A DNA stretch of 32,000 nt from Candidatus Harpocratesius repetitus (GTDB taxonomy: Archaea; Asgardarchaeota; Lokiarchaeia; Sigyniarchaeales; Promethearchaeaceae). Of this stretch, positions 10,987-30,032 are shown piece by piece; the first letter of the stretch is position 1, and each line of letters begins with the position of its first letter. The position numbers and the translations under genes are program-made. The stretch is from the NCBI GenBank assembly GCA_021498095.1, contig JAIZWK010000001.1:3600001-3632000 (forward strand), read 5' to 3'. The notes beneath the pieces are model-generated. The model was not told where the DNA came from and made no database searches. It worked only from the letters and a program-made list of their open reading frames with translations.

Positions 10987-11685
10987 TCAAATTTTGTTAT
11001 ATTCTGTGTTTTTTAATAAAAATTCGCAATATTTAATATCTTCATATGAATCAATATCAACACTTCGTGTACGAGGCATGATATATGGCATTATTTTTTT
11101 TGAATAAAATCCTTGATTTTTTCTGAAACTTTGTACAGATGAGATATATATCGCTCCATTGGAAATATAGGTTTGTGGAAGAGTTTGGCGTGGTTTTTTA
11201 AAATAATCAAGAGAAAACAATGGATGGAGGTGATTCTCTGAAATTGTGAAACTCCAATATGGAGAATGTTCAGATTCGCAAACGCTTATAAGCGCTTCAT
11301 TTGATCTTTGCTGCAGAAATTTAGATATTGCTTCATCAATATCCTCAGTGGAACGAAGTGGTGAAGTTGGTTGTAGTAAAACAAGCAAATCGGAATTATT
11401 AATTTTAGGTTGCATTTGAGAGAGAAAATCCATAATAACATCTACTGTAGAAGAATTATCTTGAGCAAGTTCATCTGGGCGATTAATAATTTCAATTGGA
11501 AAGCTTTTAACATATTCCTTAATATTGGGATCTTCAGTAGATACAAAAATAGAATCAATTAAATTAGAGTTTAATGCAGCATCAATTGTATATTTTATAA
11601 GTGGTTTCTGTAAAATAGGAAATAAGTTTTTTCGTTTTACTCCCTTAGATCCACCTCGAGCGGGAATGATTGCATAATTTGCCAT
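10987..11685 (-). CDS. Acylneuraminate (CMP-nonulosonate) cytidylyltransferase, copy 1 (NeuA/PseF/LegF family)
   Basis: IIPARGGSKGVKRKN, VSTED, RPDELAQDNSST, LLQPTSPLR, SNGAIY, SVDIDSYED. Confidence 0.95.
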   Translation of the reverse strand: MANYAIIPARGGSKGVKRKNLFPILQKPLIKYTIDAALNSNLIDSIFVSTEDPNIKEYVKSFPIEIINRPDELAQDNSSTVDVIMDFLSQMQPKINNSDLLVLLQPTSPLRSTEDIDEAISKFLQQRSNEALISVCESEHSPYWSFTISENHLHPLFSLDYFKKPRQTLPQTYISNGAIYISSVQSFRKNQGFYSKKIMPYIMPRTRSVDIDSYEDIKYCEFLLKNTEYNKI

Positions 11686-11750
11686 ATAATTAAGTTAGAT
11701 ACACAATAAGAAAAAAATTATTATTTCAGATAAGAATATATATTTCAATA

Positions 11751-12641
11751 ATGCATTTTCAAGAAAAGATTTTTGTTTCGAGTTCTTGTTTAAAACCAAA
11801 ACTCTCTATTTCAGAAATTGTGGATTTATATTTGAAGAATAAGATTAACAAAATCGAATTAGGCTCGTCCCATAAATATGAAGAAAATATAATTTCAAAA
11901 TTAAAGAAAAAGAAAAAAGAAAATCCTTTTGAATGTACAATACATGCTTATTTTCCTCCTTTAGAAGACTCTTTCTTTTTTGTAAATCTCGCTTCAAATA
12001 AGCCAAAAATTGCCTTAAGAAGTAAAAATTTTGTTAAGAAAATGATTGATTATTCAGCAGAATTGGATGCAAAAATGTGCAGTTTTCATTCTGGATTTCG
12101 TTGGGATCCTGTAGATTCATTAAAATATAATGGTCAGGAGATATATGATTATGATAAATCCTATCAAATTTTCCTTCAAAATATTAAAGAAATTTGTATT
12201 TATGCAGAAAAAAAGAATGTTCCTTTGGCATTTGAACCCAATGTTGTATCAGCAAACAGTTTAATCAATGGAAAAAATTTACTCTTAATGATGTGTGAAC
12301 ATGATGAAATTAGAAAACTATACAAAGATTTGGAAGATACTGGAATAAGAAATTTGCAATTATTATTAGATGTTGGTCATTTAAAGGTTACTGCAAATAA
12401 TCTTAATTATAGTTTTGATGACTTCATTAAAGAGTTTAAAAAATATATTGGAGAAATCCACATTCATGATAATGATGGTTTAATGGATACTCATGATCAA
12501 ATCACCCAAAATTCAAAAATTGGAAAAGTTTTAGAATCTTTAAAAAATGAAAAAGACATGATCTTTACTTTAGAAGCAGGGAAATTGAGTATTGATGAAA
12601 TTAAAGAACAAAAAGAATTATTAAGAATAATTCTATATTAA
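11751..12641 (+). CDS. Xylose isomerase-like / AP endonuclease 2 family TIM-barrel metalloenzyme
   Basis: IHAYFPP, FHSG, AFEPN, LLDVGHL, EIHIHDNDGLMDTHD, FTLE: metal-ligand pattern of the family. Confidence 0.85.
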   Translation: MHFQEKIFVSSSCLKPKLSISEIVDLYLKNKINKIELGSSHKYEENIISKLKKKKKENPFECTIHAYFPPLEDSFFFVNLASNKPKIALRSKNFVKKMIDYSAELDAKMCSFHSGFRWDPVDSLKYNGQEIYDYDKSYQIFLQNIKEICIYAEKKNVPLAFEPNVVSANSLINGKNLLLMMCEHDEIRKLYKDLEDTGIRNLQLLLDVGHLKVTANNLNYSFDDFIKEFKKYIGEIHIHDNDGLMDTHDQITQNSKIGKVLESLKNEKDMIFTLEAGKLSIDEIKEQKELLRIILY

Positions 12642-12653
12642 TGAGGAATCCTT

Positions 12654-13730
12654 ATGAAAAGTGTAAGTTTTGCACCTCCAGCAATTGGAATAGAAGAATA
12701 TGAAGCAATTAATAAAGTATTTTCATCTGGTTGGTTATCTCAAGGTCCCGAAACAGACCAATTTGAGAAAGAATTAGCCGAATATATTGGATGTAAGCAT
12801 GTAATTGTTGTAAATAATGGAACTTCTGCGTTAATCTGTGCTTTACTGTCACATGGTATTCAACCTGGTGATGAAGTAATTGTTCCAGCATATACTTTTA
12901 TTGCAACGATTAATTCTGTATTATCAATAGGCGCTAAACCTGTTTTAGCTGATATAGACAGTCAAACTTGGAATACTACCCCAGAATTGATGAAAAAAAA
13001 GGTTACAGAAAAAACAAAAGCAATAATGCCTGTTGATATTGCAGGAATGGCAGTAGATATTGATGAATTTGAAGATTTTGCATCAGAAAATAACCTAATT
13101 ATGATAGAGGATTCAGCAGAATCAATAGGTGGGGAATATAAAAAAAAGAAAATTGGTTCTTTTAACCATACCTCAATTTTCAGCTTTCATATGGCTAAAT
13201 TAATTACCACTATTGAAGGTGGATGTATATCTACAAATGATGATGAAATTGCTCAAAAAATTCGTTCAATTAGAAACCATGGTATGGAAGGTAAATATCA
13301 TTATGTAAACTTTGGATTAAACTTACGCACAACAGATATTCAATCAAGTATAGGTCGGATTCAATTAAAAAAAATTGATCAATTTATTAATCACAGAAAA
13401 AAAATGGTCCAAATTTACCGTGATAGATTAGGAGATAGAGTTTCATACCAAAAAATACCATCATATATATCAATCCATCCCTATATGATTTTTTCAATTC
13501 AAGTAGATGGAAATCGTCGAGATGATATTAATACATATTTAAATCACAATCAGATCTCTACTAGAATGTGGCCATCGATTTATAAATCACCATATCATAA
13601 TCAACTTTTTAATGATGAATTTCCAAATGCTGATAAAGTTGCAAATAGCCTTATTAATTTGCCAATAGGGAATGGAATAAAAGAAAATGAAATAAACTAT
13701 GTTTGTGATATATTACTGAAAAAACTATAA
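12654..13730 (+). CDS. DegT/DnrJ/EryC1/StrS PLP-dependent sugar aminotransferase, GDP-perosamine synthase-like
   Basis: SGWLSQGP, NNGTSAL, GDEVIVPAYTFIAT, IEDSAESIG (AE variant as in PerA), FSFHMAKLITTIEGG (PLP lysine), GLNLRTTDIQ; immediately upstream of gmd. Confidence 0.9.
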   Translation: MKSVSFAPPAIGIEEYEAINKVFSSGWLSQGPETDQFEKELAEYIGCKHVIVVNNGTSALICALLSHGIQPGDEVIVPAYTFIATINSVLSIGAKPVLADIDSQTWNTTPELMKKKVTEKTKAIMPVDIAGMAVDIDEFEDFASENNLIMIEDSAESIGGEYKKKKIGSFNHTSIFSFHMAKLITTIEGGCISTNDDEIAQKIRSIRNHGMEGKYHYVNFGLNLRTTDIQSSIGRIQLKKIDQFINHRKKMVQIYRDRLGDRVSYQKIPSYISIHPYMIFSIQVDGNRRDDINTYLNHNQISTRMWPSIYKSPYHNQLFNDEFPNADKVANSLINLPIGNGIKENEINYVCDILLKKL

Positions 13731-13745
13731 GAAGGAAGAAATGAA

Positions 13746-14801
13746 ATGAAAAAAGCCTTGATTACTGGTGTTAATGGACAAGATGGTTCTTATCTTGCAG
13801 AATTATTATTAAAGAAAGGATATGAAGTACATGGTTTAATTCGACGAAGTAGCATAATGAAATTTGATCGAATAGAGCATCTCATTCAAGATCCACAATT
13901 AAAAGACAAGCATAAATTCTACTTACATTATAATGATATGACAGATTCTTTAAACATAACAAAATTACTAAAAACAATAGAACCAAATGAAATTTATAAC
14001 TTAGCTGCTCAAAGCCATGTTAGAATTTCATTTGAAACGCCTGAGTATACATCTAATGTTGATGCATTGGGAACACTGAGATTATTGGAATCTGTTAAGT
14101 TCTTAGGATTAGAGAACAAAACAAGAATCTATCAAGCTTCAACAAGTGAATTGTACGGATTAGCAACTGAAATACCTCAATCAGAAACAACTCCCTTTCA
14201 TCCACGAAGTCCTTATGCAGTTGCAAAACTTTATGCTTACTGGATAACTATCAATTATCGTGAAGCGTATAATATGTTTGCGAGTAATGGAATATTATTT
14301 AATCATGAATCCCCTCGAAGAGGAGAAAATTTTGTTACTAGAAAAATCTCTTTAATGGCTTCTGAAATTGCTTTAGGAAAACGAGAGTGTTTATATTTAG
14401 GAAATATGTATGCCAAGCGAGACTGGGGGTACGCAGCAGAATATGTTGAAGCGATGTGGAAAATACTACAAATAGATAAACCAGATGACTTTGTCATAGC
14501 AACTGGAGAAACGCATACAGTTAAAGATTTTGTTGAAGCTGCATTTCATCATTTAAATATACCAATTCGTTGGGAAGGTGAGGGTGTAGACGAAGTTGGA
14601 ATTAATGAAATCAATAACAAAATAATTGTTCGCATTGATCCTTACTATTTTAGACCTGCTGAAGTTGAATATCTTTTAGGAGATCCAACAAAAGCTAAAA
14701 AGATACTAAATTGGGAACCCAAAGTCAAATTTAAGGAATTAGTAGGTATTATGGTTGATTCTGACTTGAATTTATTAAAGAAAAAATATCATCTTCTATA
14801 G
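13746..14801 (+). CDS. gmd: GDP-mannose 4,6-dehydratase
   Basis: [89 protein letters not shown]. Confidence 0.97.
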
Positions 14802-14810
14802 AATGGAATA

Positions 14811-15920
14811 ATGGTTATACAAATGAGAATTGAAATTAAAAACAAACGAACTATTGGAAAATTAGAGCCTATTTTTTTGATTGCAGAGATTGGAATTAAC
14901 CATATTCTCAATGAAAAGGACAAAATGAAATTGGGACTATCAAATTCCTTTGAAGTTGCATGTAAAATGATCGATATAGCAAAAGAAGCTGGAGTTGATG
15001 CAGTTAAATTTCAAACATTTAAAACTGAAGAACTTCAATTTCAAGGAATAAGTAAACCTGATTATCAAGAACAAAATGAAGAAATTAGAGAATCCTATTA
15101 TGATTTAATAAAAAAATATGAAGAAGATTATAATGAACAAAAAAAGATAGCCGATTATTGTAATAAAGTCGGAATACTTTTTCTTTCTACACCTTATGAT
15201 ATTGAAAGTGCTCTTTTTCTGGTTAACGAATTAGAAGTTCCAATTATCAAATTAGCATCTATCGAATTGAATAACCACCATTTTTTAAAACAAATCGTAC
15301 AGTTTAATCTGCCAATAATTTTATCAACAGGTTTAAGTAATGAAGAAGATGTAGAAGAAACCATAAAATTAGCTCAAAAAATGCATTTTAAAGACCGTTT
15401 AATATTACTTCATTGTACATCTGATTATCCAGCAAAAAAACATGAAATCAATTTAAATATCTTAAAAAACTACTATAATAAATATCCGAATATGTTATTT
15501 GGTTATAGTGATCATTCAGAAAACAATTTACCATCTTTAGGTGCCGCTGCAATTGGTGCAGTGGTAATTGAAAGACACTTTACATTAGATAAATCATTTT
15601 CAGGCCCAGATCACCGTGCATCTATGAATCCCAGCGAATTAAAGAAATGGGTGGAAGAAATTAGAAATATGGAAGTAATTCTTGGAAATTATACTAAAGA
15701 AATAACAGAATCTGAAAAAAAAAATCTTAATATGCGTAAATTCTTAGTTCTTAATCCAGTTAAAAAAGGGACTATTATTTCAGAAAATCACTTAACTACA
15801 ATGCGCACTGGAAAAGGAATTCTTCCAAAAAATTGCAATCTACAGAAAATTATAGGTAAAAAAGTTTGCAAAGATATAAAAAAAAGGACCATTTTTTCAT
15901 GGGATCTCATTTCTGATTAA
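14811..15920 (+). CDS. Nonulosonate synthase (NeuB family) with C-terminal SAF domain, copy 1, atypical N-terminal motif
   Basis: IAEIGINH, DAVKFQTF, FLSTPYD, IILSTG, LLHCTSDYPA, GYSDHS, IERHFTLDK, GPDHRAS, SAF-like tail. Confidence 0.93.
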   Translation: MVIQMRIEIKNKRTIGKLEPIFLIAEIGINHILNEKDKMKLGLSNSFEVACKMIDIAKEAGVDAVKFQTFKTEELQFQGISKPDYQEQNEEIRESYYDLIKKYEEDYNEQKKIADYCNKVGILFLSTPYDIESALFLVNELEVPIIKLASIELNNHHFLKQIVQFNLPIILSTGLSNEEDVEETIKLAQKMHFKDRLILLHCTSDYPAKKHEINLNILKNYYNKYPNMLFGYSDHSENNLPSLGAAAIGAVVIERHFTLDKSFSGPDHRASMNPSELKKWVEEIRNMEVILGNYTKEITESEKKNLNMRKFLVLNPVKKGTIISENHLTTMRTGKGILPKNCNLQKIIGKKVCKDIKKRTIFSWDLISD

Positions 15921-15960
15921 AAACCTTAGATATTTTTATAATATAAATAATATTGGAATA

Positions 15961-16647
15961 ATGAATATGGTGATTCATAGAAAGATTCTAATAATTGGGG
16001 CAGGAGTCCACGCTCAAGTAATACTTGATATCTTATCTTATGATTTAAACAATGAAATAATTGGATTCACAGATAAAGATAAAAGAAAGCATAATTCATT
16101 AATTAATGGAATACCTGTAATTGGGGATGATAGTGTCATTCCCAAACTAATTAAAAATAATGAAATTAATTCGATTATCATTGGATTAGGCTATGAACTT
16201 ATCGAAAAAAGAGAAATTCTTTATAATGAAATTAATAAATTAAACATTGAATTAATAAATGCAATTCATCCCTCTGCCATTATTGCAAAAAATGTAAAGC
16301 TTGGGAAAGGAATTGCGATTATGGCAGGATCTATTATAAATCCCAATAGCGATATTCAAGATAATGTTGTAATAAATACAGGAGCAATTATTGATCATGA
16401 CAATTATATAGGAAAGAATTGCTTTATCCAAGTAGGAGCTAAGTTAGCAGGAAATGTTAGAATTAGTGAGAATTCCATAATTGGATTGGGAGCAAATATT
16501 TTGGAAAAAGTAAAAATTGGGAGAAACTCCATAATAGGTGCTGGAAGTGTAGTTAATAGGAATATTCCAGATAATGTGATTTTTGTCGGAGTTCCTGCAA
16601 AGTTCTTGAGAAAAAATATCCGTATAACTAATGAAAGAATAAATTAA
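15961..16647 (+). CDS. Sugar N-/O-acetyltransferase, NeuD/PglD/PerB family (left-handed beta-helix)
   Basis: LIIGAGVHA, IGFTDKD, AIHPSAII, INTGAIIDHD, hexapeptide repeats, GVPAK. Confidence 0.92.
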   Translation: MNMVIHRKILIIGAGVHAQVILDILSYDLNNEIIGFTDKDKRKHNSLINGIPVIGDDSVIPKLIKNNEINSIIIGLGYELIEKREILYNEINKLNIELINAIHPSAIIAKNVKLGKGIAIMAGSIINPNSDIQDNVVINTGAIIDHDNYIGKNCFIQVGAKLAGNVRISENSIIGLGANILEKVKIGRNSIIGAGSVVNRNIPDNVIFVGVPAKFLRKNIRITNERIN

Positions 16648-16666
16648 TAAAAAATAGGATAAATGT

Positions 16667-17878
16667 TTGAATATGAAGATTAAAGAGAAATTAGTCCAAT
16701 CAAATAAAATAATACTCATTGGTTTTATTCAAAATCATCATCCAATTTACATTGCCCTAATTAATTTTTTGCTTGAATTCAATCCTTCCATTACGTTATT
16801 AACCACAAAAGAAATTTTCATGCAAATCCAACATGAGATTGATTCAAACAAAATAGATTTACATCTTGAATCGCGCAAATTAAATCGCATGTTGAAAAAA
16901 AATTTGAAATTAATAAATTCTCATGAAATCGTCATAATGGAAGAATATTATGGTGGTTTTATTAAAATCTTTAATTTAAAATTCAAAAATCCCAAAAAAA
17001 TTGCAATAGTTCATAATGTGAATAAATGGTTTCTTGTAAGGGGAAGTATTTATTATTTTATTGATCTTCTCTTTAAATCAAGATATATATCTCAATTTGA
17101 TGCATATATAGTAATGTCCCCTGTAGTAAAAACATACTTAAAATCTTTTATAAACAATAAGAATATCTTCTTTTTCCCAGGAGAAGAAAACTATTCTTCA
17201 GAACCAAACCCTTATCATAAACTAGAAAAATTAGATCAAAATATCATACATAATGGAAATTACATTGAGATTGTTGTTCCAGGAATGATTTCAGAAAAAA
17301 GAAGAGAATATATCAACTTATTACTGGTTTTAAAGCAATTTTATAAAAATAATCCTACTTCTAAAATTAGAATTAACCTTTTAGGATCAATTAACAATAA
17401 GGAAAATGATCAAGATAGAGATAAAATTTTAGAAATTATCAACGAATGTAATAATCTTTCTCCAATTGAAGGAGAAAGAATAAAATATGGTAAAAAATTT
17501 ATCCCAATGGAGGAATTTACGAAAACATTGGAAAAAGCAGATTTAATATTGTCTAACGCAAAAGTGTTTAATCTTTTGGAAGATCGTCTAGAAATATATG
17601 GAATAACAAAAATAACGGGGATTTCTTATATAATCTATCGATATGAAAAACCTGCTATAATTCCAAATCATCAAAATATATTACTTGGTTTTGATAATCA
17701 ATTTATTAAGTTTTCAAATTATACTGATATTATAGATATTTTCAACCAAATTGAAAAAAAAGAGATAAATTTAGAAATTTTGAAGCGAAATGCTTTTAGA
17801 AATAGAAAAAAATTTAATCAATTGATAAAAACAGAAAAAAATAAGATCAAGGATTATTTGAATTCTACTGATATGTGA
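16667..17878 (+). CDS. Uncharacterised protein, probable GT-B glycosyltransferase
   Basis: Soluble 403 aa; AIVHN, IVVPGMISEKRREY, LEKADLIL, YGITKITG and KPAIIP resemble GT-B C-terminal lobe elements; last gene of the per-gmd-neuB operon. Confidence 0.55.
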   Translation: MNMKIKEKLVQSNKIILIGFIQNHHPIYIALINFLLEFNPSITLLTTKEIFMQIQHEIDSNKIDLHLESRKLNRMLKKNLKLINSHEIVIMEEYYGGFIKIFNLKFKNPKKIAIVHNVNKWFLVRGSIYYFIDLLFKSRYISQFDAYIVMSPVVKTYLKSFINNKNIFFFPGEENYSSEPNPYHKLEKLDQNIIHNGNYIEIVVPGMISEKRREYINLLLVLKQFYKNNPTSKIRINLLGSINNKENDQDRDKILEIINECNNLSPIEGERIKYGKKFIPMEEFTKTLEKADLILSNAKVFNLLEDRLEIYGITKITGISYIIYRYEKPAIIPNHQNILLGFDNQFIKFSNYTDIIDIFNQIEKKEINLEILKRNAFRNRKKFNQLIKTEKNKIKDYLNSTDM

Positions 17879-17889
17879 AAAAAGGTAAA

Positions 17890-20250: not shown

Positions 20251-20383
20251 AATATGTGTTATTGAACGAATTTGAAAAATATTTTTATATTCTTAGTTTA
20301 AGAGAAATAGAGTAATCAAAGAAATAAAAAAAAATAAAGAGAAGGAAATAATTTAAAACTTAAATAACTAATGGTGGAGTTAA

Positions 20384-21691
20384 ACGAAGAAAATATTAAT
20401 TGTACCCCATTACGTAAATTCCTTAATATATTACCAAAAATTATTTCAAAAATTTAATAGTCATGATTTTGAGTTAGTTTATCTAATCAGAAATAACCAT
20501 TTTGGCAAAATTATGAAGGATTATTGTATTAAATCAAATTTAAACTATATCAAACTAAAGTATCCTCTTTTTAATAATTCTAAATTCGCAAGTATTCTTA
20601 ACATTTTATTTATTGGTGTCTTTAAATTACAAGTCAAAAAAATATTGCAAAAAAATAATCCAAACTTGATAATTCAAACTAATGACACGAATCTTATTAA
20701 CAATGTAATAGTTTCCACTGCTAAAAAGAAAAATATTTTAACTTTAGTTATACAATGGGCTCAAACTGCTCCAGAAGATTATTATTTAAAACTAAAGAGT
20801 TTAAATACAAATCATAAAGAATTAACAAAAAAAACACATATAACACATTGGTTCCTCCATAAATTAACAAATTTCATGCTAAAAATCTCTCAGATACCTA
20901 AATTCAATAAAAAATCATTAGCCCAAGGTAATTCAGACTATGTTTTCGTAATTAACGATTATACAAAGAAACTTTTAATTAAACAAGGTGTAAAAAAAGA
21001 AAAAATATATATCTCAGGTTCTACAGCATATGACGATGCGTTATCCATAAATCTACCTAAAAGAGAAGAAATTAAGAAAAAAATAGGAATAAATAATAAT
21101 AATATTACAATTTTATTCATTTCTCAACCGTTTTATGTTAAAGATATTCGAATTATGAAAAAAGAAAAACAAATTCAATACATCAAAGATATAATTGTTT
21201 TCTTTAATAATTTTTATCAAACACAGAATAAAGAGGTAAATATAATTTTAAAACTACACCCTGTTGAGCTTAAAAAAGATTATATTGAATTGACTGATTC
21301 TTGTAAAAATATATTGATTTTAAGTGATTTTAATAACTTAGAATTAATAAAAATCTCAGATTTATGTGTTGGATTCAGTTCAACACTTCTACAATCAGTA
21401 ATAATAATGAAAAAGCCAATCTTGTGTTTAAATATGATTCCAGAACTAAAATTTATAATTGAAACTCAATCAAAAATATCTGGAATAACTCAAGATATAA
21501 AATCTTGGAATGAATTATCTAAAACCTTAAAGATCTTGGAAGAAAATGGATATCAACAGTTAGATAATGTAAATATGAAAAACTTTGTTTTAGATCAGAA
21601 AGTTTACTTAAGATTAGAGACTTGGATTCATGAATTACTATTTGATAATCATATAATTTCTACGAATTTAGAACCAAATGAACAAGAATAA
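20384..21691 (+). CDS. Putative GT-B transferase (capsule-synthesis / CDP-glycerol phosphotransferase / sialyltransferase-like). Start extended to ACG 20384; first in-frame ATG is 20513
   Basis: ILFISQP, ILKLHPVE, SDLCVGFSSTLL, KPIL; the frame is open 43 codons upstream of the ATG (TKKILIVPHY...) behind a GGTGGAG SD-like site. Confidence 0.65.
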   Translation, partial: TKKILIVPHYVNSLIYYQKLFQKFNSHDFELVYLIRNNHFGKIMKDYCIKSNLNYIKLKYPLFNNSKFASILNILFIGVFKLQVKKILQKNNPNLIIQTNDTNLINNVIVSTAKKKNILTLVIQWAQTAPEDYYLKLKSLNTNHKELTKKTHITHWFLHKLTNFMLKISQIPKFNKKSLAQGNSDYVFVINDYTKKLLIKQGVKKEKIYISGSTAYDDALSINLPKREEIKKKIGINNNNITILFISQPFYVKDIRIMKKEKQIQYIKDIIVFFNNFYQTQNKEVNIILKLHPVELKKDYIELTDSCKNILILSDFNNLELIKISDLCVGFSSTLLQSVIIMKKPILCLNMIPELKFIIETQSKISGITQDIKSWNELSKTLKILEENGYQQLDNVNMKNFVLDQKVYLRLETWIHELLFDNHIISTNLEPNEQE

Positions 21692-21703
21692 TGGGTAATT
21701 ATT

Positions 21704-23308
21704 ATGAATGTAAAAGATTTTTGGATAAATTATACTAAAAAAATAAATATTTATCGAGAAGAAAAAAAAATTTCTTCTGATACAGTAGATTTATTTAAGG
21801 AACTTAAATCTACAAATAAATTACAAGGGAAAACTGTGGTATTTAATACGGTCCGCAGTTTCAAAAATATTTTTGACTTAGAATTATTTTTTGGAAAATT
21901 ATTAGCTAAAAATGGAGCGAAAGTTATAATATTATTAGATAATGGTGTTTTAAATCATTGGGATACAATTAAATTTGATTCTTTAAATGTAATTAAGTTA
22001 GAAAGGAAAAAACTCAACCCTTATTATAAATTTTTTTCGAATTTTACAAGTTTTATTTCACCTCAAATTAGAATAATAAAATTACATAAAGAGATTTATC
22101 AAGATCCTAATTTAGAAATTATATTTTATAGTAATATTTTGAAAGGTATTGGGTTTTCTGATATAAAGAATAAGAATTTCCATCACCATGCAAAAGCTTC
22201 AACAATTCGATTTTTCAAAAACTCTGATTTTCAGATTGATGACCCCCCTTATTCTAATTATTATGACCTATCGATGGAAAATTGTAAATTGACATTTGCC
22301 ATTGGTGAACAAATATATGAAAAATACCATCCAAATGTATTTATCACTTCTCATGGTATATATTCAACTTGGGGTCCTATGTATGACTTTTTTAAAACAA
22401 AGAAAATTAAAAGTTATGTCTATGCCGGGAAACATAGTCATGCTCTAAATCAAAAATACATTTACTTTACAGACTCAAAAGTTCAAACTTTAACAAGATC
22501 GAGTTTTTGGAATAAATATAAGAATACACAAGTAACTACAGAAATGAAAAAGAAAGTGGATGAATATTTTAAAACTAGATTTAGACATGCTACAATGGAT
22601 ACAAAAGTTTATTTTGGTGAAGAAGCAAATATTCTTCAAATTGTAAAAGATAAACGCAAGAAATTTAATATTGCAATATTTCCTAATTCAATTTGGGACG
22701 GAAATATCCATGATCGTCATCAAGCATTTGAAGGAATTATCGATTGGTTGGTGAAGACGGTATATTATTTCAGAAATAGAGAAGATTGTCAAGTTTATAT
22801 TAAATTTCATCCCGCAGAAATAACTTTTTTTCAAAATCCAGAAGGATTAGCTGATATCCTAAAAAAGAAAATCCCAGGATTGGAATCATTTGAAAATATT
22901 AAATTAATTAGACCTCATGAAAAAATTGAAACATACAAATTTTTAAAGAGTGGTATCGATTTAGGTATTCTTTATGATGGAATCTTAGGATTAGAACTTC
23001 CATACTTGAGAATTCCGGCGTTATTAGCCGGAGTAGGGGGAAGATTTACGATAGAAGATGGAAATTTCACAATCAAAAATAAGGATGATTATTTTAACAT
23101 CCTTAATAATTTGGATTATTGGATTGAAAATTTCAAGTCAAATTATGATTATTATTTAAACCAAATCATTAGATATACTTATTGGTATATTTTTGAACAT
23201 CCATTTGAACTTGTAACTCAATCCCCTACAGGTCGATATCAAAGATCATTGAAAGGATTAAGTAAAAAAGATTTAGTAATACCTGATAAACTGCTTTCTT
23301 TGTTATAG
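21704..23308 (+). CDS. Capsular polysaccharide biosynthesis protein (KpsS/Capsule_synth-like GT-B), possible nonulosonate transferase
   Basis: VFITSHGIY, IAIFPNSIWDG, VYIKFHPAE, GILGLELPYLRIPALLAG. Confidence 0.6.
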   Translation: MNVKDFWINYTKKINIYREEKKISSDTVDLFKELKSTNKLQGKTVVFNTVRSFKNIFDLELFFGKLLAKNGAKVIILLDNGVLNHWDTIKFDSLNVIKLERKKLNPYYKFFSNFTSFISPQIRIIKLHKEIYQDPNLEIIFYSNILKGIGFSDIKNKNFHHHAKASTIRFFKNSDFQIDDPPYSNYYDLSMENCKLTFAIGEQIYEKYHPNVFITSHGIYSTWGPMYDFFKTKKIKSYVYAGKHSHALNQKYIYFTDSKVQTLTRSSFWNKYKNTQVTTEMKKKVDEYFKTRFRHATMDTKVYFGEEANILQIVKDKRKKFNIAIFPNSIWDGNIHDRHQAFEGIIDWLVKTVYYFRNREDCQVYIKFHPAEITFFQNPEGLADILKKKIPGLESFENIKLIRPHEKIETYKFLKSGIDLGILYDGILGLELPYLRIPALLAGVGGRFTIEDGNFTIKNKDDYFNILNNLDYWIENFKSNYDYYLNQIIRYTYWYIFEHPFELVTQSPTGRYQRSLKGLSKKDLVIPDKLLSLL

Positions 23309-23316
23309 TATAGAAT

Positions 23317-24195
23317 TCAGTTCCAAAATGAGGTATTAATATTAACAATTTTACTTAATTTTTGATTTGGATTTTTAAAAAACTTCTGAAGATTTGAAAC
23401 CGTTTCTAAATCCATAGAAGGATATCCTACTTCTTTTTTATAATTGAAAGCAATCATTTTATGATAAAGTTGTGCTACTTGTCCTCCATTTTTGAAAAAT
23501 GGTTTTCCAAATTTTGTAATTCGATCAATAATTTTCTGGATTTTTTGATTTTTAGGTAAAACTGTAACATTTTTTTTGATTGATACATCGATTTCAATAT
23601 CTGGATTAATACCTAAAAAAACGAATATATCTCGTAAAATTTTCTGAGTCGAATTAAAATCTTTGGTATATTCTTCAAAGGTTGTGAAAAACATTTGTTT
23701 TTTAGGAAAAAAGTGTAAAAAATATTCAACATGCATAAAATATAAACTACGATATAAATAACCTTCTAGTTTTCCTAGTTCTATATATTTCATTTCTTCT
23801 TCAATTACTTCTTTAAATGCACGGTTTTCCCTTCCTTTTTTATAAGCATGCCAATAATCTGAATATGCTCTATCAATAGGATTTCGTAAAATCCATATTA
23901 ATTTTGCAGATGGTATAATTTTTGCAATATTTTCTGCGTATTCTTTCTTCAAACAATAATTTGGTGTTTTTTCACCAATGATCGATTGATTTTGATAACC
24001 TGAAAATTCATTTGCATACCAATCCAAACCTTTAGAATAATGTTTTTCGTTGTTAAAGAAGTGAATTTCATGATCAGCCATAAAAATATCTGGATGTTGA
24101 CTTAAATGATAACTTAAAGTGCTTGTGCCAGATTTCATTGCTCCAACGATTAAAATATTTGGCAATATTATTTTTCTTCCCCCCAGAAATATCAA
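23317..24195 (-). CDS. PAPS-dependent sulfotransferase (probable true start TTG at 24165)
   Basis: 5'-PSB GAMKSGTSTL, EIHFF, GEKTPNY, 3'-PB ILRNPIDRAYSDY; GGGGGAAG purine run upstream of the TTG. Confidence 0.92.
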   Translation of the reverse strand: MIFLGGRKIILPNILIVGAMKSGTSTLSYHLSQHPDIFMADHEIHFFNNEKHYSKGLDWYANEFSGYQNQSIIGEKTPNYCLKKEYAENIAKIIPSAKLIWILRNPIDRAYSDYWHAYKKGRENRAFKEVIEEEMKYIELGKLEGYLYRSLYFMHVEYFLHFFPKKQMFFTTFEEYTKDFNSTQKILRDIFVFLGINPDIEIDVSIKKNVTVLPKNQKIQKIIDRITKFGKPFFKNGGQVAQLYHKMIAFNYKKEVGYPSMDLETVSNLQKFFKNPNQKLSKIVNINTSFWN

Positions 24196-24240
24196 TTATT
24201 TATTTTTATAAAGTAAAAAATGATAAAAAAATTCTCACTT

Positions 24241-25260
24241 CTATGATTTTAATCGAAAAAGAAATCTTTGAACGAATTCTTTAATAAGACGAGCAAAATC
24301 TTTAAAAGATTCGAGGAATTTGATCGGAGAATAAAAATCATGTAGATAAAAAACTAAATGATAATATGTTCGAGGAACAAAAATCTTTTTTTTTAATGCC
24401 ATGAATATAACATTTCGAGCGAGTCGTTTACTTTTAGCTAAACACAACAATTCAAATATTTTATAACAGAAAAATTGGTAAATTTCAATATCATCTTTAA
24501 TAAAAGATTTATACTTTTTCCAAATATAAAGATATGCCCATATTTTGGTAAAAGGCTTTTTTATTAAACTTTCATAGGTTATACTAGATTTATGAACATA
24601 ATGATTTAACAAAGGTTTACTTACATATTCACATTCATAATATAATGCGATTCTAATCCACATTTCATAATCTTGATGGCCTCCTTGCCTTAAAATTTCT
24701 GATTCATCGAACAAACCTACTTTCTTAAATACTTCTCGTTTGATGAGGGGATAAACACCAATCACTCCTTGAGTCAACATTTCTTTAAAGACTTTACCAG
24801 AATACTTTGGTAAAATATTTCGATTTAAACCAGGTTGAATCAAAGTCATTCCAGGAAAAACAAATCCAACCTTTTTTGGAGATTTCTGTAACTTTAGCAA
24901 TAATAATTCTAACATTTCAGGGCGCCAATCATCATCTGAGTCTAAAAGTATGATATACTCACCTGATGCTGCTTTTATTCCACGATTACGTGTGAAATTG
25001 GGTCCCATGTTTTTTGAATTTACAATAAGTTGGATATTAGAGTAATCTTTCATCAAGGAACGAATAATTGAAACAGTTTTATCTTTTGAACAATCATCCA
25101 CAACAATAATTTCAAAATTTTGATATGTTTGGTTTAAAACACTTTCAATAGCTCGTTTTATTGTTGACTGGCGATTGAATGAAGGAATAATTACAGATAT
25201 TAAACTAGATTCAATAGCTGAATTCATAATGGAATAATGGAATAATGTAATTTTAAGCAT
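24241..25260 (-). CDS. GT2 family glycosyltransferase
   Basis: ISVIIPSFNR, EIIVVDDCSKD, RNRGIKAASGEYIILLDSDD, QDYEMWIRI. Confidence 0.94.
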   Translation of the reverse strand: MLKITLFHYSIMNSAIESSLISVIIPSFNRQSTIKRAIESVLNQTYQNFEIIVVDDCSKDKTVSIIRSLMKDYSNIQLIVNSKNMGPNFTRNRGIKAASGEYIILLDSDDDWRPEMLELLLLKLQKSPKKVGFVFPGMTLIQPGLNRNILPKYSGKVFKEMLTQGVIGVYPLIKREVFKKVGLFDESEILRQGGHQDYEMWIRIALYYECEYVSKPLLNHYVHKSSITYESLIKKPFTKIWAYLYIWKKYKSFIKDDIEIYQFFCYKIFELLCLAKSKRLARNVIFMALKKKIFVPRTYYHLVFYLHDFYSPIKFLESFKDFARLIKEFVQRFLFRLKS

Positions 25261-25427
25261 TGTATTCTGATTATGCCTATAATTCTAGAAAATGTCTTTA
25301 AATTATACATGGTTGCAAAATTGGTGAATTTTATGAAGTTGTGCTCAATTGACTTCCTTTTATCTTTGAATGAATTTGGGAAAAGATTATTTTTATCAAA
25401 TGATTCATAAAAGTTTTTTCTTAGCAG

Positions 25428-26939
25428 TTGTTCTTTATTTTAAATATGAAAGAGAAACTAGCAATTCAGATGATTTTTCAAATTTCTATAAGAATTTTGT
25501 CAATGATTAGTACTTATATTTTTATTTTAAAAGTTTCGTCTGGAATATATGGAACGATCCATTTTGTTTCAGATACAATTCAAATGTTTTTAGTTCTTAT
25601 CTCAATCGGATTTGATTCTATCTTAAATAAACAATCAAAAGAGCATAATTTTAGAGAAATTTTTGTAAACTATTTTTATATTAAGTTATTTCTAATTCTT
25701 ATCAATTTTATTCCTATTTTTATATTTATTATAATTATGAATTACGATTTTTCGTTCTATTTTGTAATTACAGCATTTTCTATCATGCTAAATAATATAA
25801 GCGGAAGTCTAATTTGGATAATCAAAGCACGTTTTAAGCTTTTTAAAGTAAATATTATTGGTTTTGTATATAATTTACTTAACTCAATATTAACTATATT
25901 TCTTGCTTTAAATTTAGATAAAATTTCAGATATTTTAGTTTTAGTTGGAATAATTGCTCTTGGTTCCTCTTTTCTTAATTTCACTATGGTAGCTTTAGTT
26001 GTTAGAAAAGAATTTCAATTTAAAAGAATTAATTTTCTAATTATTAAAAAAATGATATTTGAAGCAAAACCACTAATTTTAGTTTCGATTTTTGCAACTT
26101 TTACAAATTACTTCGGAAATTTCCTATTAGGATATGCATATGGAGTTGTAATCTATGCAGAATTTGCTTTTGTGAATTCAGTAATTATTAGTTTTTTGTT
26201 ATTTATAAGTAATAGCATTACTGAGAATTACCAAACATTATACTCTATTTGGATAAAAGAAAATTCATATGAGAAAATTAGAAGGTTTGCCAATAAACTT
26301 GAAAAATTTTCTTCTATTTTCTTTGGATTAATTTTAACTGGAACTTTATTAAACGCAAAAATTGCATTAAAATTATTCCTTCCGAATTATATTAATTCCT
26401 TAATTTATATCCAAATTCTTATTTTTGTGCCTTACATTGCCAGTATTTCTCGACCTTATGGAAAAATCCTTGTTCCTGCAGGAAAACAAAAAGAATTATC
26501 ATTATTAACTTTTGTAAAACTAATAATACGATTAGTATTTTCATTAATATTAATCCCTCAGTCAATTTTTAGCATTAAAATGATTGGATTAGGAGTAATT
26601 GGAAATTGTATTGTAATATTGACTCCTTGGATTATTGATTTATTTTATTATCGGATTTATTTAAAAAAAACCTTCAATATTTTATTTTATACTCGGATTT
26701 TCGTTCATCTCTTGATAATAATTGTTATTCTAGGATTATCATATATAATCAAAAAATTTATTATCGAGATATTAATTAGTTCTGATTTAATCATTTTATT
26801 TTTATCTTCCTTTATTCTAACAATTTTATATTTTGGAGGATTTATTATCACAAAAGAAATTACAAAATCAGATATTGATTTCATTAAAAAATTTATAAAA
26901 ATTAAAAACTATAAAAATGCAATTAAGTCAGAATTTTAA
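25428..26939 (+). CDS. Oligosaccharide flippase (Wzx/MOP superfamily); likely start ATG 25446
   Basis: About 500 aa with 12-14 hydrophobic segments, YGTIHF, PYGKILVPAGKQK, located inside a glycan cluster. Confidence 0.85.
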   Translation: MFFILNMKEKLAIQMIFQISIRILSMISTYIFILKVSSGIYGTIHFVSDTIQMFLVLISIGFDSILNKQSKEHNFREIFVNYFYIKLFLILINFIPIFIFIIIMNYDFSFYFVITAFSIMLNNISGSLIWIIKARFKLFKVNIIGFVYNLLNSILTIFLALNLDKISDILVLVGIIALGSSFLNFTMVALVVRKEFQFKRINFLIIKKMIFEAKPLILVSIFATFTNYFGNFLLGYAYGVVIYAEFAFVNSVIISFLLFISNSITENYQTLYSIWIKENSYEKIRRFANKLEKFSSIFFGLILTGTLLNAKIALKLFLPNYINSLIYIQILIFVPYIASISRPYGKILVPAGKQKELSLLTFVKLIIRLVFSLILIPQSIFSIKMIGLGVIGNCIVILTPWIIDLFYYRIYLKKTFNILFYTRIFVHLLIIIVILGLSYIIKKFIIEILISSDLIILFLSSFILTILYFGGFIITKEITKSDIDFIKKFIKIKNYKNAIKSEF

Positions 26940-27022
26940 CAGACAGATATGACTAGATAAAAAATTATTAGATTACTTTACAAAATCAAAAATATGAAGA
27001 ATAAATTAAAAAACTGCAAATT

Positions 27023-27742
27023 TCAAAGAAACTTTTTTCTTTTTTTTATTAAAAATTCTGCAATATCCCAGTCATATTGATCATCGATATCAATACTTCT
27101 CTCTTTTGGCATGATATAGGGGATACAATTACGACCAATGATTCTTCTTTCTTTTAGTAATAATTCAGTTTTAGTTAAATAAATTGCGGCACCGTTTCGA
27201 GCATATAGTGGTTCTAAATCTTGTCTTCTTTTAATTTTCGATTGTGAATTTATATAACCTTTTATATATTTCTTATTTTTTTTCATTATTTTTTCAGGAT
27301 GATATATATGTGGTACTTCTACAACACTGACTAAAGAATCTGCTTGTGGATCATTTAGAATTAATTGAATTGAATTATCAATATCTTTTGCAGTTCTTAA
27401 TGGAGAAGTTGGTTGTAATATCATTATATAATCGGGTCTATACTGCTCTTTATCATTAAGATAATGTAAAGCATGAATTACAACATCAATGGTTTTTGAT
27501 TCGTCAGATGATAATGATACTGGTCTTTGGAATGGAGCTTCCATACCGCATGATTTGGAATAATTTATTATGTCTGGATCATCACTGGAAACAATGCATC
27601 TCGAAAGATATTTTGATTTTTCTACAGCATTAAAAGTATATTTTATAAGCGGTATTCCATTCAATGTTCGGATATTTTTTCGTAAAATCGTTTTTGATCC
27701 TCCACGTGCAGGAATTATACCCAAAATTTGTTTAATGTGCAT
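27023..27742 (-). CDS. neuA: Acylneuraminate cytidylyltransferase, copy 2
   Basis: IIPARGGSKTILRKN, VSSDD, RPVSLSSD, ILQPTSPLR, RNGAAIY, SIDIDDQYD; overlaps the neuC end by 11 nt. Confidence 0.93.
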   Translation of the reverse strand: MHIKQILGIIPARGGSKTILRKNIRTLNGIPLIKYTFNAVEKSKYLSRCIVSSDDPDIINYSKSCGMEAPFQRPVSLSSDESKTIDVVIHALHYLNDKEQYRPDYIMILQPTSPLRTAKDIDNSIQLILNDPQADSLVSVVEVPHIYHPEKIMKKNKKYIKGYINSQSKIKRRQDLEPLYARNGAAIYLTKTELLLKERRIIGRNCIPYIMPKERSIDIDDQYDWDIAEFLIKKRKKFL

Positions 27743-28931
27743 TTATATCACTAAATTTTCTATAGAATTTTTTCTGAACATTCACATCAATATTTTCTAA
27801 AATTGAAACAATTTTTTTTGCAGCATTTCCAGTTCCATATATCGGATCTGAAGGATATTTTCCATGTTTTATCTGAGTAATAATTGCTTTCTTAATTTCA
27901 TCTGAATTATATGAAACATCTATCACGTTTTTACCTCTCGCTCGGTCTGATTGTCTTGTGCCAATATTAACTACTGGAGTTCCTATAAAAGCACCTTCTC
28001 TAATTCCACTACTTGAATTTCCAATCAAACAAGCAGTTTTATCCATCAACCATATATATATATTTAAGGGTAAGTTTTTAAAGAAATGAAATTGCTTATC
28101 TAGCCCTCTTTCTCGAAATTTTCGAATTCCTCGAGAAATATGATCACTTCCTGCATCCACATTTGGCCAAAGCATAATTACTGGATAATTATATTCCTTC
28201 GAAACTTCAGAAACTGCGTTTAATGTATTTGTGATTTGTTGTTCTCCTAATCCAAATTCAGTAGTGACAGGATGTTGAGAAACTAATAAAAATCCATTAT
28301 TAATGTCAAATATTGATCCAACACCATTTTTACGAATGATTTGGTTTATAATATCTTTATCATAATCAGTTTCTAAAATTTCTTTTATACTATCAATTCT
28401 AGGGCATCCAACATTAAAAACAAATTCTTCATTTTCTCCCATTTGAATAATTGTTTTTCTAGCAAGTTCATTTGCAGGAAAATGAACATGTGATATTTTT
28501 GTTATTGCATGTCGAATAATTTCATCTACAGTCCCAGAAAGTTCTCCTCCCATAGTATGCACGATAGGAATATTCATATAGAGAGCAGCAATAGCAGCTG
28601 TTAACATTTCAAATCGATCTCCAACAATTAAAAAAAAATCTGGAGAATATTTATGAAGTAAGCTTGGAAGTTCAATAAGACCCATGCCTGCAGATTTTGC
28701 CATTGTGATTAAATTCTCACCTTCAAAAATAGTATAAATCTTCTCATTAACCTTAAATCCATCTTCTTCAACAATTTTAATTACTTCACCAAATTTATCG
28801 AGAAGTGCTGAAGCACCTACAAAAAGAACCAAATTTAATTTCTCAGAATTCTTAATTTCACGCATAATTGATTTTAAACTTGAGTAATTTGCTCGACTTC
28901 CCAAAAATATACAAACATTTCGCTTTTTCAA
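27732..28931 (-). CDS. neuC: Hydrolysing UDP-GlcNAc 2-epimerase (NeuC/LegG family); TTG start
   Basis: GSRANYS, VGDRFEML, HTMGGELSGTVDEIIRHAITKISHVHF, QHPVTTE, WPNVDAG, GNSSSGIRE, NIGTRQ. Confidence 0.93.
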   Translation of the reverse strand: MKKRNVCIFLGSRANYSSLKSIMREIKNSEKLNLVLFVGASALLDKFGEVIKIVEEDGFKVNEKIYTIFEGENLITMAKSAGMGLIELPSLLHKYSPDFFLIVGDRFEMLTAAIAALYMNIPIVHTMGGELSGTVDEIIRHAITKISHVHFPANELARKTIIQMGENEEFVFNVGCPRIDSIKEILETDYDKDIINQIIRKNGVGSIFDINNGFLLVSQHPVTTEFGLGEQQITNTLNAVSEVSKEYNYPVIMLWPNVDAGSDHISRGIRKFRERGLDKQFHFFKNLPLNIYIWLMDKTACLIGNSSSGIREGAFIGTPVVNIGTRQSDRARGKNVIDVSYNSDEIKKAIITQIKHGKYPSDPIYGTGNAAKKIVSILENIDVNVQKKFYRKFSDINAH

Positions 28932-28991
28932 AGTTATTCCTCTTCTTTCTATATTGGATTATGAAAATAGTCAAAAAATTGAAAATATTTT

Positions 28992-30032
28992 TCATTCTAA
29001 AAATGAGTATAATATTTGTTCATTGTGATTTATATCACATTTTAATTTTTTACCAATAATTTCATGGTATTTATCAGCTCTAATTCCATTACCTGGCTTT
29101 TTAAAATCCAAGTCTGAAATCTCAAGAATCTTGCCTTTTGGAAGATTTTTGGAAGCAACTATGCTTTTTTCAAATACTAGTTTCATTTGTTTATATTTTT
29201 CTAGATTATTTTTATCAACTGGATTTATTAGAACTTTTTCAATAAATCGAATTTCATCGATAAAAGATTTCATTTCATGAGGTTCAAAGGAAAATCTTGC
29301 ATCTGCACCATACATTTTTTTTGATAATGTAAAGTGTTTCTCAAAGATAGTTGCCCCGGAATATAAAGCAGCAATAGCAGAGCTACTAGAAAGAGTATGA
29401 TCAGAAAAACCAATGGGTATACCAGGATAGCGTTTTTTCATTTCTTGAATAACATTTATTCCGACTGATTCTGGTTGACAAGGATATTCTGAAGAACATT
29501 GAAAAATCATGCAAAGATTATTTTTTAATGCATTTACTGCCTGATCAATTTCATCCCAATTTGACATACCAGTAGAAAGTAAGACAGGAATTTGTTGTTT
29601 GTCAATATATTCTAAAAGAGGTAAATTAGTGGTTTCACCAGATGCTATCTTAAATCCATCAATTTTTAATTTAGTTAAAATTTCTGCTGCTTTTTGAGAG
29701 AAAGGAGATACAATAAAATCTAAACCTAAAGAATGAGTAAAATCACGCAATTTTTCCCATTCTAGATATGTAAAAGATGTTCGGTTAAAATATTCATATC
29801 GTTTTTCAATAGTAAAGTAAGGAGGGGTAGGAGCATCCGCCAGAGTCTCTGCTTCTGATATATGCATTTGAAATTTTACTGCATCAACACCCGATTTTGT
29901 AGCTTCTTCAATTAATCGAATAGCATTTCCAAAACTTCCATCATGATTCATTCCTATCTCAGCTATAATGTAACAATTTTTAGACTGTATTTTTTGAAGT
30001 AATTTATTCATTCTTACATAAATTAAAATCAC
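28992..30032 (-). CDS. neuB: N-acetylneuraminate (nonulosonate) synthase with SAF domain, copy 2; likely start ATG 30011
   Basis: IAEIGMNHDGS, DAVKFQ, FKIASGE, LLSTGMS, QCSSEYP, GFSDHT, EKHFTLSK, KKPGNGI. Confidence 0.94.
   Translation of the reverse strand: MILIYVRMNKLLQKIQSKNCYIIAEIGMNHDGSFGNAIRLIEEATKSGVDAVKFQMHISEAETLADAPTPPYFTIEKRYEYFNRTSFTYLEWEKLRDFTHSLGLDFIVSPFSQKAAEILTKLKIDGFKIASGETTNLPLLEYIDKQQIPVLLSTGMSNWDEIDQAVNALKNNLCMIFQCSSEYPCQPESVGINVIQEMKKRYPGIPIGFSDHTLSSSSAIAALYSGATIFEKHFTLSKKMYGADARFSFEPHEMKSFIDEIRFIEKVLINPVDKNNLEKYKQMKLVFEKSIVASKNLPKGKILEISDLDFKKPGNGIRADKYHEIIGKKLKCDINHNEQILYSFLE

Follow-up and report, generated by a model that had tools for sequence, protein, structure and literature searches.

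Bacterial N-acetylneuraminic acid (Neu5Ac) is made by the neuBCA enzymes of Escherichia coli K1 and by SiaA/SiaC/SiaB of Neisseria meningitidis, a route with neither dehydratase nor aminotransferase, while the GDP-linked route to CMP-legionaminic acid (CMP-Leg) of Campylobacter jejuni comprises LegB, LegC, LegH, LegG, LegI and LegF. A third pathway of relevance, to GDP-N-acetylperosamine, uses Gmd, Per and PerB in Caulobacter crescentus and E. coli O157. More than one nonulosonate (NulO) module may occupy a single surface-glycan region, as in the flagellar locus of C. jejuni with pseudaminic acid (Pse) and Leg, and Leptospira, with its sialic acid and other NulO genes, provides another dual-NulO comparison (PMC3438082). 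A 2021 survey reported that no archaeal Neu5Ac synthase had been characterised (PMC8208679). Asgard archaea are the prokaryotes most closely related to eukaryotes. Almost nothing is known about the chemistry of their surface, and a literature search, which had subscription journals outside its scope, found no paper linking them with sialic or nonulosonic acids. Here we describe a glycan locus at positions 10987-30032 of a 32,000-nucleotide stretch (the window, C1:3600001-3632000) of the genome of Candidatus Harpocratesius repetitus. Two sets of NulO genes lie at its ends, set 1 on the left and set 2 on the right, and on balance the locus probably carries two complete, unrelated supply lines for CMP-nonulosonates, one of Neu5Ac type (set 2) and one fed by GDP-mannose (set 1).

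Set 2 comprises the same three families as bacterial neuBCA, with no dehydratase or aminotransferase. Its NeuC passes the NeuC_NnaA equivalog cut-off, and NeuB2 combines NeuB and SAF domains with the metal-binding and catalytic residues of N. meningitidis NeuB. At the sequence level, NeuB2 and NeuC share only ~30-40% identity with their E. coli and N. meningitidis counterparts and occupy other places in the trees than those of E. coli K1, while NeuA2 (239 aa) lacks the C-terminal esterase domain of E. coli NeuA (~418 aa). Like the C. jejuni Leg pathway, set 1 would start from a GDP-sugar and contains a 4,6-dehydratase, a DegT aminotransferase, a PglD/NeuD-family acetyltransferase, a NeuB-family synthase and a CMP-transferase. 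However, its dehydratase is a true Gmd, acting on GDP-mannose, instead of LegB, which acts on GDP-GlcNAc; neither set 1 nor homologous cassettes contain a LegG/NeuC-type 2-epimerase, a metallo TIM barrel being conserved there instead, and the predicted sugar carries 5-OH and not 5-NAc. Set 1 also shares Gmd, a Per-like DegT and a PerB-like acetyltransferase with the GDP-N-acetylperosamine pathway, but these genes are interleaved with those for NeuB, the TIM barrel and the CMP-transferase. Compared with dual-NulO bacteria, the region likewise holds more than one NulO module; it differs in belonging to an Asgard archaeon and in pairing a Neu5Ac-type cassette with a GDP-mannose-fed module.

Host genome and the two gene sets

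The host genome is closed, consisting of a single contig of 4,361,485 bp, and its GTDB family also includes a closed genome of 6,035,313 bp. It contains two archaeal small-subunit (SSU) rRNA genes (SSU_rRNA_archaea, 1472 and 1457 bits) and a full-length, eukaryote-type actin (PF00022, 435.7 bits over model positions 5-408), together with two more actin-family genes, while the NeuB2 clade (56-69% identity) consists of proteins named Promethearchaeota, Lokiarchaeota or Hodarchaeota. These data support an Asgard archaeon of Lokiarchaeia type and bear out the initial annotation, which had proposed a probable Asgard archaeon. The Pfam profilin model was uninformative, having no match in the host and likewise none in any control genome.

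Genome-wide, two NeuB and two CTP_transf_3 genes were identified, all located at the two ends of the locus. The same survey revealed one NeuC-type gene (in set 2), one WecB-like gene 22 kb upstream, three full-length DegT genes, one NeuD/PglB-type acetyltransferase above cut-off and one Gmd. Both sets consist of intact open reading frames (ORFs), in agreement with the earlier proposal that two NulO systems bracket one glycan locus, and their divergence is equally clear, NeuB1 and NeuB2 being 29-32% identical and NeuA1 and NeuA2 38% identical. The accompanying description of the sets as pointing inward applies to the NeuB1 operon (plus strand) and to set 2 (minus strand), which converge on the middle of the locus, but not to NeuA1, which is read outward, with a gap of 65 nt separating it from the divergent TIM-barrel gene.

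Set 1 and its relatives

Set 1 comprises the following genes.

10987-11685, minus strand: CMP-nonulosonate synthetase NeuA1, 232 aa (PF02348 CTP_transf_3, E 5.5e-27)
11751-12641, plus strand: xylose-isomerase-like/endonuclease IV-like metallo TIM barrel, 296 aa, first gene of the operon (PF01261 AP_endonuc_2, 74 bits)
12654-13730, plus strand: DegT-family pyridoxal phosphate (PLP) sugar aminotransferase, 358 aa (PF01041, 357.9 bits)
13746-14801, plus strand: GDP-mannose 4,6-dehydratase Gmd, 351 aa (TIGR01472 equivalog, 561.4 bits against a cut-off of 415)
14811-15920, plus strand: nonulosonate synthase NeuB1, 369 aa (PF03102, 267 bits)
15961-16647, plus strand: PerB-like N-acetyltransferase of the NeuD/PglB/VioB family, 228 aa (TIGR03570, 212.4 bits against a cut-off of 160.8)
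16667-17878, plus strand: 403-aa protein, last gene of the operon (no Pfam or NCBIfam match)

Gaps within the operon measure 9-40 nt, and Gmd is embedded between DegT (15-nt gap) and NeuB1 (9-nt gap). Gmd displays intact GxxGxxG, TSE and YxxxK motifs and scores only 110.7 bits with the LegB model (cut-off 475). DegT retains the Schiff-base (PLP) lysine in the motif SFHMAK and, among solved structures, scores highest with QdtB (222.7 bits) and GDP-perosamine synthase (221 bits), whereas the best solved match of the acetyltransferase is the Caulobacter perosamine N-acetyltransferase PerB (148.9 bits, compared with 103 for PglB and 84 for PglD). Among the perosamine-type enzymes, Gmd passes its equivalog cut-off and the acetyltransferase is clearly nearest PerB, while DegT is near-tied between QdtB and perosamine synthase; DegT probably acts on the Gmd product. 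Compared with N. meningitidis NeuB, NeuB1 contains an insertion behind the NH motif that is specific to its clade. The 403-aa protein has a language-model feature match of 0.97-0.98 to GT4/Glycos_transf_1-type clusters, which serves as a lead only. Since Gmd is single in the genome and absent from both same-genus genomes, it appears to have arrived with the locus and has no other evident consumer.

The NeuB1 clade shows 50-59% identity; its few named members are Thorarchaeota, "archaeon" and Thermoplasmatota, and one member is a NeuB-NeuA fusion. No NeuB1 orthologue above 45% identity was present in any of 400 Asgard genomes. A search for related loci with NeuB1 alone gave no match, and with the clade alignment it relied on generic NeuB motifs and recovered only relatives of at most 44% identity. 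Metagenome contigs were therefore searched with a degenerate DNA pattern encoding KLAS[FIL]EL..NH.F, a motif specific to the clade, and five contigs matched. Contig L131 contains NeuA and, in order, NeuB (47%), the TIM barrel (46%), DegT (58%) and Gmd (61%), plus a PglD-like acetyltransferase and a flippase; L133 contains NeuB (52%), DegT and Gmd (66%), and L134 contains NeuA, a formyltransferase, DegT, the TIM barrel, a sulfotransferase and NeuB (55%).

NeuB-TIM-DegT clusters without NeuC were also found in nine bacterial loci of several phyla, including SAR11, Lachnospiraceae, Flavobacteriales, Planctomycetes, Rhodospirillaceae and Magnetospirillum, so that the TIM barrel is adjacent to NeuB and DegT in these nine loci and in two metagenome contigs. 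All five NeuB-TIM-DegT genomes tested encode exactly one true Gmd, compared with 5 of 14 control genomes, and in the SAR11 genome Gmd lies ~16 kb from NeuB. In the window itself NeuB, the AP_endonuc_2 TIM barrel, DegT and the CMP-transferase are linked, Gmd is in the same locus, and set 1 contains neither NeuC nor PseG. These observations suggest that set 1 is an archaeal copy of a NeuC-free, GDP-mannose-fed NulO module that is widespread and uncharacterised; the literature search found neither a NulO route supplied by Gmd nor a NulO cluster with a TIM barrel described. The second, unusual NulO that had been anticipated for this locus is thus matched by a route that is free of NeuC and linked to Gmd.

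Two further arrangements were observed. On a Magnetospirillum sp. contig (L088, JACRFY010000017.1) a NeuA-NeuB-TIM-DegT module occupies ~7673-12200. In the Asgard genome G217 the second NeuB is a 634-aa NeuB-SAF-TIM fusion (L137:4480-6384, minus strand, equivalent to G217:C18:154479-156383), located 12 kb from the NeuBCA cassette of that genome and neighboured by a short-chain dehydrogenase/reductase (SDR), a CMP-transferase, GFO/IDH/MocA oxidoreductases and a methyltransferase. This neighbourhood recalls the ElaC/ElaB/ElaA C8-epimerase cassette of Acinetobacter baumannii (PMC13656337). Membership of the TIM barrel in an ElaABC-type C8-epimerase set was considered and rejected, as ElaA and ElaC are NAD(P)H-dependent and ElaB is a CMP-transferase, none being a TIM barrel.

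Predicted set 1 pathway and the TIM barrel

In the proposed pathway Gmd would produce GDP-4-keto-6-deoxymannose, DegT would aminate C4 and the PerB-like enzyme would N-acetylate the amine. The sugar would then be freed from GDP, for which the candidates are the metallo TIM barrel or another protein, in which case the TIM barrel might epimerise beside the keto group. NeuB1 would condense the resulting 4-acetamido-4,6-dideoxyhexose with phosphoenolpyruvate (PEP) to a 7-acetamido-3,7,9-trideoxy-nonulosonate with 5-OH (predicted C11H19NO8, 293.11 Da, calculated), which NeuA1 would activate with CTP.

The structure of the TIM barrel predicted by AlphaFold2 (AF2) is confident (pLDDT 92.6), and in structural comparisons it comes closest to a D-tagatose 3-epimerase-like protein, followed in this order by the isomerase Art22, UlaE, psicose 3-epimerases, the 3-keto-glucoside 4-epimerase YcjR and endonuclease IV. 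Twelve homologues share invariant H65, H113, E162, D207, H210, H237, D246 and E275. These residues presumably map onto eight of the nine metal ligands of endonuclease IV, and we take the same set to include the E-D-H-E residues of ketose 3-epimerases. Two roles could fit this arrangement, epimerisation of the carbon beside the 4-keto group made by Gmd or release of the sugar from GDP.

The strongest competing explanation divides set 1 into two pathways. NeuB1, NeuA1 and the TIM barrel would on their own convert mannose or mannose-6-phosphate to 2-keto-3-deoxynononic acid (Kdn) or a sugar resembling it, the TIM barrel serving as phosphatase or isomerase, whereas Gmd, DegT and the acetyltransferase would form a separate route to GDP-N-acetylperosamine or an isomer. 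Gmd, Per and PerB indeed constitute a known stand-alone pathway, to whose PerB the acetyltransferase is nearest among solved structures. The minimal conserved unit is NeuB plus TIM barrel, which are fused in G217, a genome with no DegT, and a Kdn route needs no dedicated sugar-modifying enzymes; the lack of Gmd within 14 kb in L134 points the same way. However, Gmd is inserted between DegT and NeuB1 at the short distances given above, the Gmd-DegT-NeuB adjacency recurs in unrelated contigs, every bacterial NeuB-TIM-DegT genome tested has one Gmd, and DegT directly adjoins NeuB-TIM in the nine bacterial loci, where no other source of a keto-sugar lies nearby. Because the interleaved Gmd/DegT-NeuB linkage recurs elsewhere, it suggests that the amino sugar is an intermediate and not an end product, and we regard the separation into two pathways as rather unlikely. 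The GDP-mannose-fed module, including its TIM-barrel step, is the most interesting part of the locus, as an archaeal example of a widespread and uncharacterised route.

Set 2, a probable Neu5Ac-type cassette

The genes of set 2 are as follows.

27023-27742, minus strand: CMP-nonulosonate synthetase NeuA2, 239 aa (PF02348, 78.4 bits), its start overlapping the end of NeuC by 11 nt
27732-28931, minus strand: NeuC of the hydrolysing UDP-N-acetylglucosamine (UDP-GlcNAc) 2-epimerase type, 399 aa (TIGR03568, 389.5 bits against a cut-off of 235.9)
28992-30032, minus strand: nonulosonate synthase NeuB2, 346 aa, GTG start (PF03102, 223.7 bits, plus SAF domain)

In a public gene call NeuB2 has a later start and comprises 319 aa. 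Equivalents of E25, E134, H215 and H236 of N. meningitidis NeuB are present in NeuB2. NeuC scores only 65.7 bits with the WecB model, and its solved relatives are the epimerase domain of human GNE (253.9 bits) and A. baumannii LegG (202.6 bits). NeuC would hydrolyse and 2-epimerise UDP-GlcNAc to N-acetylmannosamine (ManNAc), NeuB2 would condense ManNAc with PEP to Neu5Ac, and NeuA2 would convert this to CMP-Neu5Ac.

Cassettes of the NeuB2 type occur in 4 of the 400 Asgard genomes. Besides the host, a NeuB2 orthologue was identified only in G187, G217 and G169 (same order, another family), which display the gene order NeuB-NeuC-NeuA and levels of identity to the host of 59-63% for NeuB and 60-67% for NeuC; NeuA2 is 60.5% identical to NeuA of the G187 cassette. 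In G217, no DegT, acetyltransferase or SDR gene lies within 9 kb of the cassette, and this genome, which is 100% complete, lacks DegT-family genes at E<=1e-30 as well as NeuD/PglB-type acetyltransferases above cut-off. Therefore, the cassette cannot be fed with, or make, a diamino sugar there. No LegB/PglF/PseB-type dehydratase scores above cut-off in the host genome, where the best TIGR04180 LegB score (185.9 bits, cut-off 475) belongs to a TviC-like 4-epimerase and the best PF02719 score is 85.7 bits. A pseudaminic route is similarly poorly matched, with PseI model scores of 242 and 232 bits against 340, a PseC score of 279 against 423.5, PseF (TIGR03584) scores of 155 and 154 bits for NeuA1 and NeuA2 against 205.7, and no PseB-type Polysacc_synt_2 protein.

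These features bear on the alternative of a single legionaminic-type pathway spanning the locus, in which NeuC, NeuB2 and NeuA2 would act as LegG, LegI and LegF and be fed by DegT and the acetyltransferase of set 1 plus an unrecognised 4,6-dehydratase. DegT does match the LegC family model (242 bits), the acetyltransferase is a PglD/LegH family member, NeuC and LegG proteins intermingle in the tree, and other Asgard NeuB-NeuC pairs have DegT or an acetyltransferase nearby. Nevertheless, the only operon dehydratase is an equivalog-level Gmd, no PtmE-type sugar-1-phosphate guanylyltransferase was seen in the window, and both the missing LegB-type dehydratase and the same NeuB2-NeuC-NeuA cassette in the DegT-free G217 argue against such a pathway, which we consider improbable. 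The initial annotation had taken neuBCA without dehydratase or aminotransferase as the Neu5Ac route and had named as its refuting case NeuC/NeuB2 acting as LegG/LegI served by genes elsewhere. The former agrees with the best reading of set 2, a self-contained, portable cassette that is putatively of Neu5Ac type, while the latter is countered by these results as far as sequence can tell.

Independence of the two sets and contrary evidence

In the 213-row NeuB tree, NeuB1 falls in a starred clade of 42 rows and NeuB2 in a separate starred clade of 33 rows, and in the NeuA tree NeuA2 pairs with its counterpart from the G187 cassette as starred sister, while NeuA1 groups with other Asgard NeuA proteins. 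Together with the levels of identity described above, the NeuB placements suggest that the two sets are of different, independent origin. The NeuA tree was dropped as proof of independent origins of NeuA1 and NeuA2, being too weakly resolved. Trees of NeuA, NeuB and NeuC had been suggested as a check, and their outcome is mixed, since they place NeuB1 and NeuB2 in different clades but do not separate Neu5Ac from Leg enzymes and are weak for NeuA. Several Asgard genomes hold two or three NeuB genes in one glycan region of 20-40 kb (G163, G207, G251 and G217; regions L124, G163:C10:549000-568900, L125/L126, G207:C138, and L129, G251:C30), and the pairing of NulO sets is therefore not unique to the host.

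A number of findings weigh against two complete and unrelated supply lines. Both NeuB proteins fall under the TIGR03569 equivalog cut-off (332.8 bits for NeuB1 and 322.7 for NeuB2 against 399.65). In NeuB2, Lys replaces Arg314 of N. meningitidis NeuB, a residue reported as essential in a review (PMC8208679). Lys occupies this position in 48 of 49 NeuB2 clade members and in 24 of 24 wider relatives, while Arg is usual in other NeuB, LegI and PseI-type proteins, with 139 of 142 other NeuB proteins carrying it; the Lys could be a subfamily signature of an altered substrate contact. No recognised NDP-sugar hydrolase is encoded in set 1, and the nearest folds of the TIM barrel are sugar epimerases and isomerases, not phosphoesterases. 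In addition to its missing Gmd, L134 contains a formyltransferase in place of the acetyltransferase. The NeuA tree is poorly resolved, and in it NeuA1 and NeuA2 share a weak group of 10 rows. Use of the NeuB and NeuC trees to tell Neu5Ac from Leg enzymes failed, as NeuB and NeuC of E. coli K1 (anchors taken from UTI89) nest among Leg-context genes. The assignment of set 2 to true Neu5Ac consequently rests on gene context and not on phylogeny or chemistry. Finally, it is common for a glycan locus to contain unrelated sugar pathways next to one another.

Genes between the two sets

The middle of the locus contains genes for glycan assembly and for a nucleotidyltransferase-domain protein, the latter antisense between the set 1 operon and the candidate transferases.

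17890-20250, minus strand: 786-aa protein with a Pol-beta-type nucleotidyltransferase domain (PF01909 NTP_transf_2, E 2.5e-6)
20513-21691, plus strand: 392-aa GT-B-like protein, candidate nonulosonate transferase (weak match to the NF046086 BFO_1060 family, 48 bits against a cut-off of 200)
21704-23308, plus strand: 534-aa soluble protein, candidate KpsC/KpsS-like ulosonate transferase (no Pfam match)
23317-24195, minus strand: sulfotransferase, 292 aa (PF00685, 77 bits)
24241-25260, minus strand: GT2 glycosyltransferase, 339 aa (PF00535, 134 bits)
25428-26939, plus strand: Wzx-like multi-span flippase, 503 aa, ~15 hydrophobic segments (PF01943, 27.1 bits, just below cut-off)

The 392-aa protein also weakly matches TIGR04396. 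BFO_1060 is an orthologue of Tannerella forsythia Pse/Leg transferases shown by knock-out (PMC5420450). For the 534-aa protein, language-model features match at 0.97 clusters in which ~40% of members carry PF05159 Capsule_synth, a lead only, and a homologue of 44% identity is located in a NeuB locus of the Asgard genome G207. Two candidate ulosonate transferases would provide a tidy fit to two CMP donors. Together with the GT2 enzyme, the sulfotransferase and the flippase, they would build and flip a sulfated, doubly acidic glycan. For the locus as a whole, sequence shows the gene families, their singularity in the genome, the recurrent linkage and the island nature, while substrates, products, release from GDP and the matching of transferases to donors are inferred. 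It is possible, although we advance this tentatively, that the cell displays both true Neu5Ac and an undescribed NulO core, 5-hydroxy-7-acetamido-3,7,9-trideoxy and derived from GDP-mannose, with the TIM barrel replacing NeuC, LegG or PseG. If so, Asgard archaea carry sialic acid proper on their surface, and a novel enzyme activity common to SAR11, candidate phyla radiation (CPR) bacteria and others is represented in the genome of a cultivable lineage. A closed genome that predicts two acidic nine-carbon sugars offers a directly testable glycomic prediction with two diagnostic masses.

Island character and relation to eukaryotic sialylation

The GC content is 26.5% in the locus and 31.0% in the whole genome, and the locus ranks among the lowest 0.6% of 19-kb windows. 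DNA matches to the same-genus genome G002 end at window position 1121 and restart at 30405, in a radical-SAM gene, and positions 1122-30404 have no DNA match in either of two same-genus genomes, G001 lacking any significant match. Neither of these genomes, which are 87% and 92% complete, contains NeuB or Gmd. With G217 the locus has nothing in common beyond the three-gene cassette. The island borders carry neither tRNA genes nor Rfam families, and no repeats were detected at the right border. The locus looks like the right-hand part of a genome-specific, low-GC surface-glycan island, recently acquired and built from portable cassettes. That one set is a silent or redundant passenger of such a transfer, leaving a single NulO displayed, is the least probable explanation, for which the low-GC, genome-specific nature of the whole region and a broken SDR gene at its left edge may be cited, but every gene of the two sets is an intact ORF and catalytic motifs are conserved, their overlaps or close spacing suggest expressed operons, and two candidate ulosonate transferases are present.

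NeuC is 35-37% identical to hemichordate GNE and 41-47% identical to NeuB-NeuC fusion proteins of Patescibacteria. In a 64-row NeuC tree, animal GNE was sister to the host clade plus the CPR fusions (SH-aLRT 95). This sisterhood was rejected as a sampling artefact, because GNE grouped with other proteins after the addition of 150 GNE-centred representatives; in the denser tree the host clade lies in an 80-row group neighbouring GNE. In these data there is no specific Asgard-GNE sisterhood. As the island looks horizontally acquired, it reveals little about the origin of sialic acid in eukaryotes. The suggestion that the locus bears on the pre-eukaryotic history of sialylation accordingly finds no backing in a low-GC island without match in congeners, cassettes in 4 of 400 genomes, a missing NeuB1 orthologue and the lack of GNE sisterhood.

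Fusions of NeuB with NeuC, of 700-770 aa, are encoded by Patescibacteria and other uncultured bacteria. Larger fusions comprise NeuB-NeuC-NeuA (986 aa), NeuB-NeuC-2-hydroxyacid dehydrogenase (1097 aa) and NeuB-formyltransferase-NeuC (1013 aa). Outside the Asgard group, the NeuC portions of these fusions are the nearest relatives of the host NeuC.

Flanking genes

The following features lie outside the locus.

~78-1121, minus strand: broken SDR epimerase/dehydratase gene with in-frame stops (one TAA, one TGA)
1-10 kb, left part of the window: two NDP-sugar dehydrogenases, RmlC and a GFO/IDH/MocA oxidoreductase
4615-5577: TviC-like 4-epimerase
7653-10016: PKD/beta-propeller surface protein
30396-31469: radical-SAM/SPASM gene, beyond set 2

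The broken SDR gene, which forms the left limit of DNA similarity with G002, has an intact paralogue at C1:3547881-3548718 with 80% DNA identity. The surface-protein gene and NeuA1 are separated by a 970-bp non-coding stretch, of which ~700 bp (10274-10967) recur elsewhere in the genome, at C1:4188843-4189636 with 79-84% identity and partially at C1:3119231-3119361; this sequence bordering set 1 is a repeated element or the remnant of a gene.

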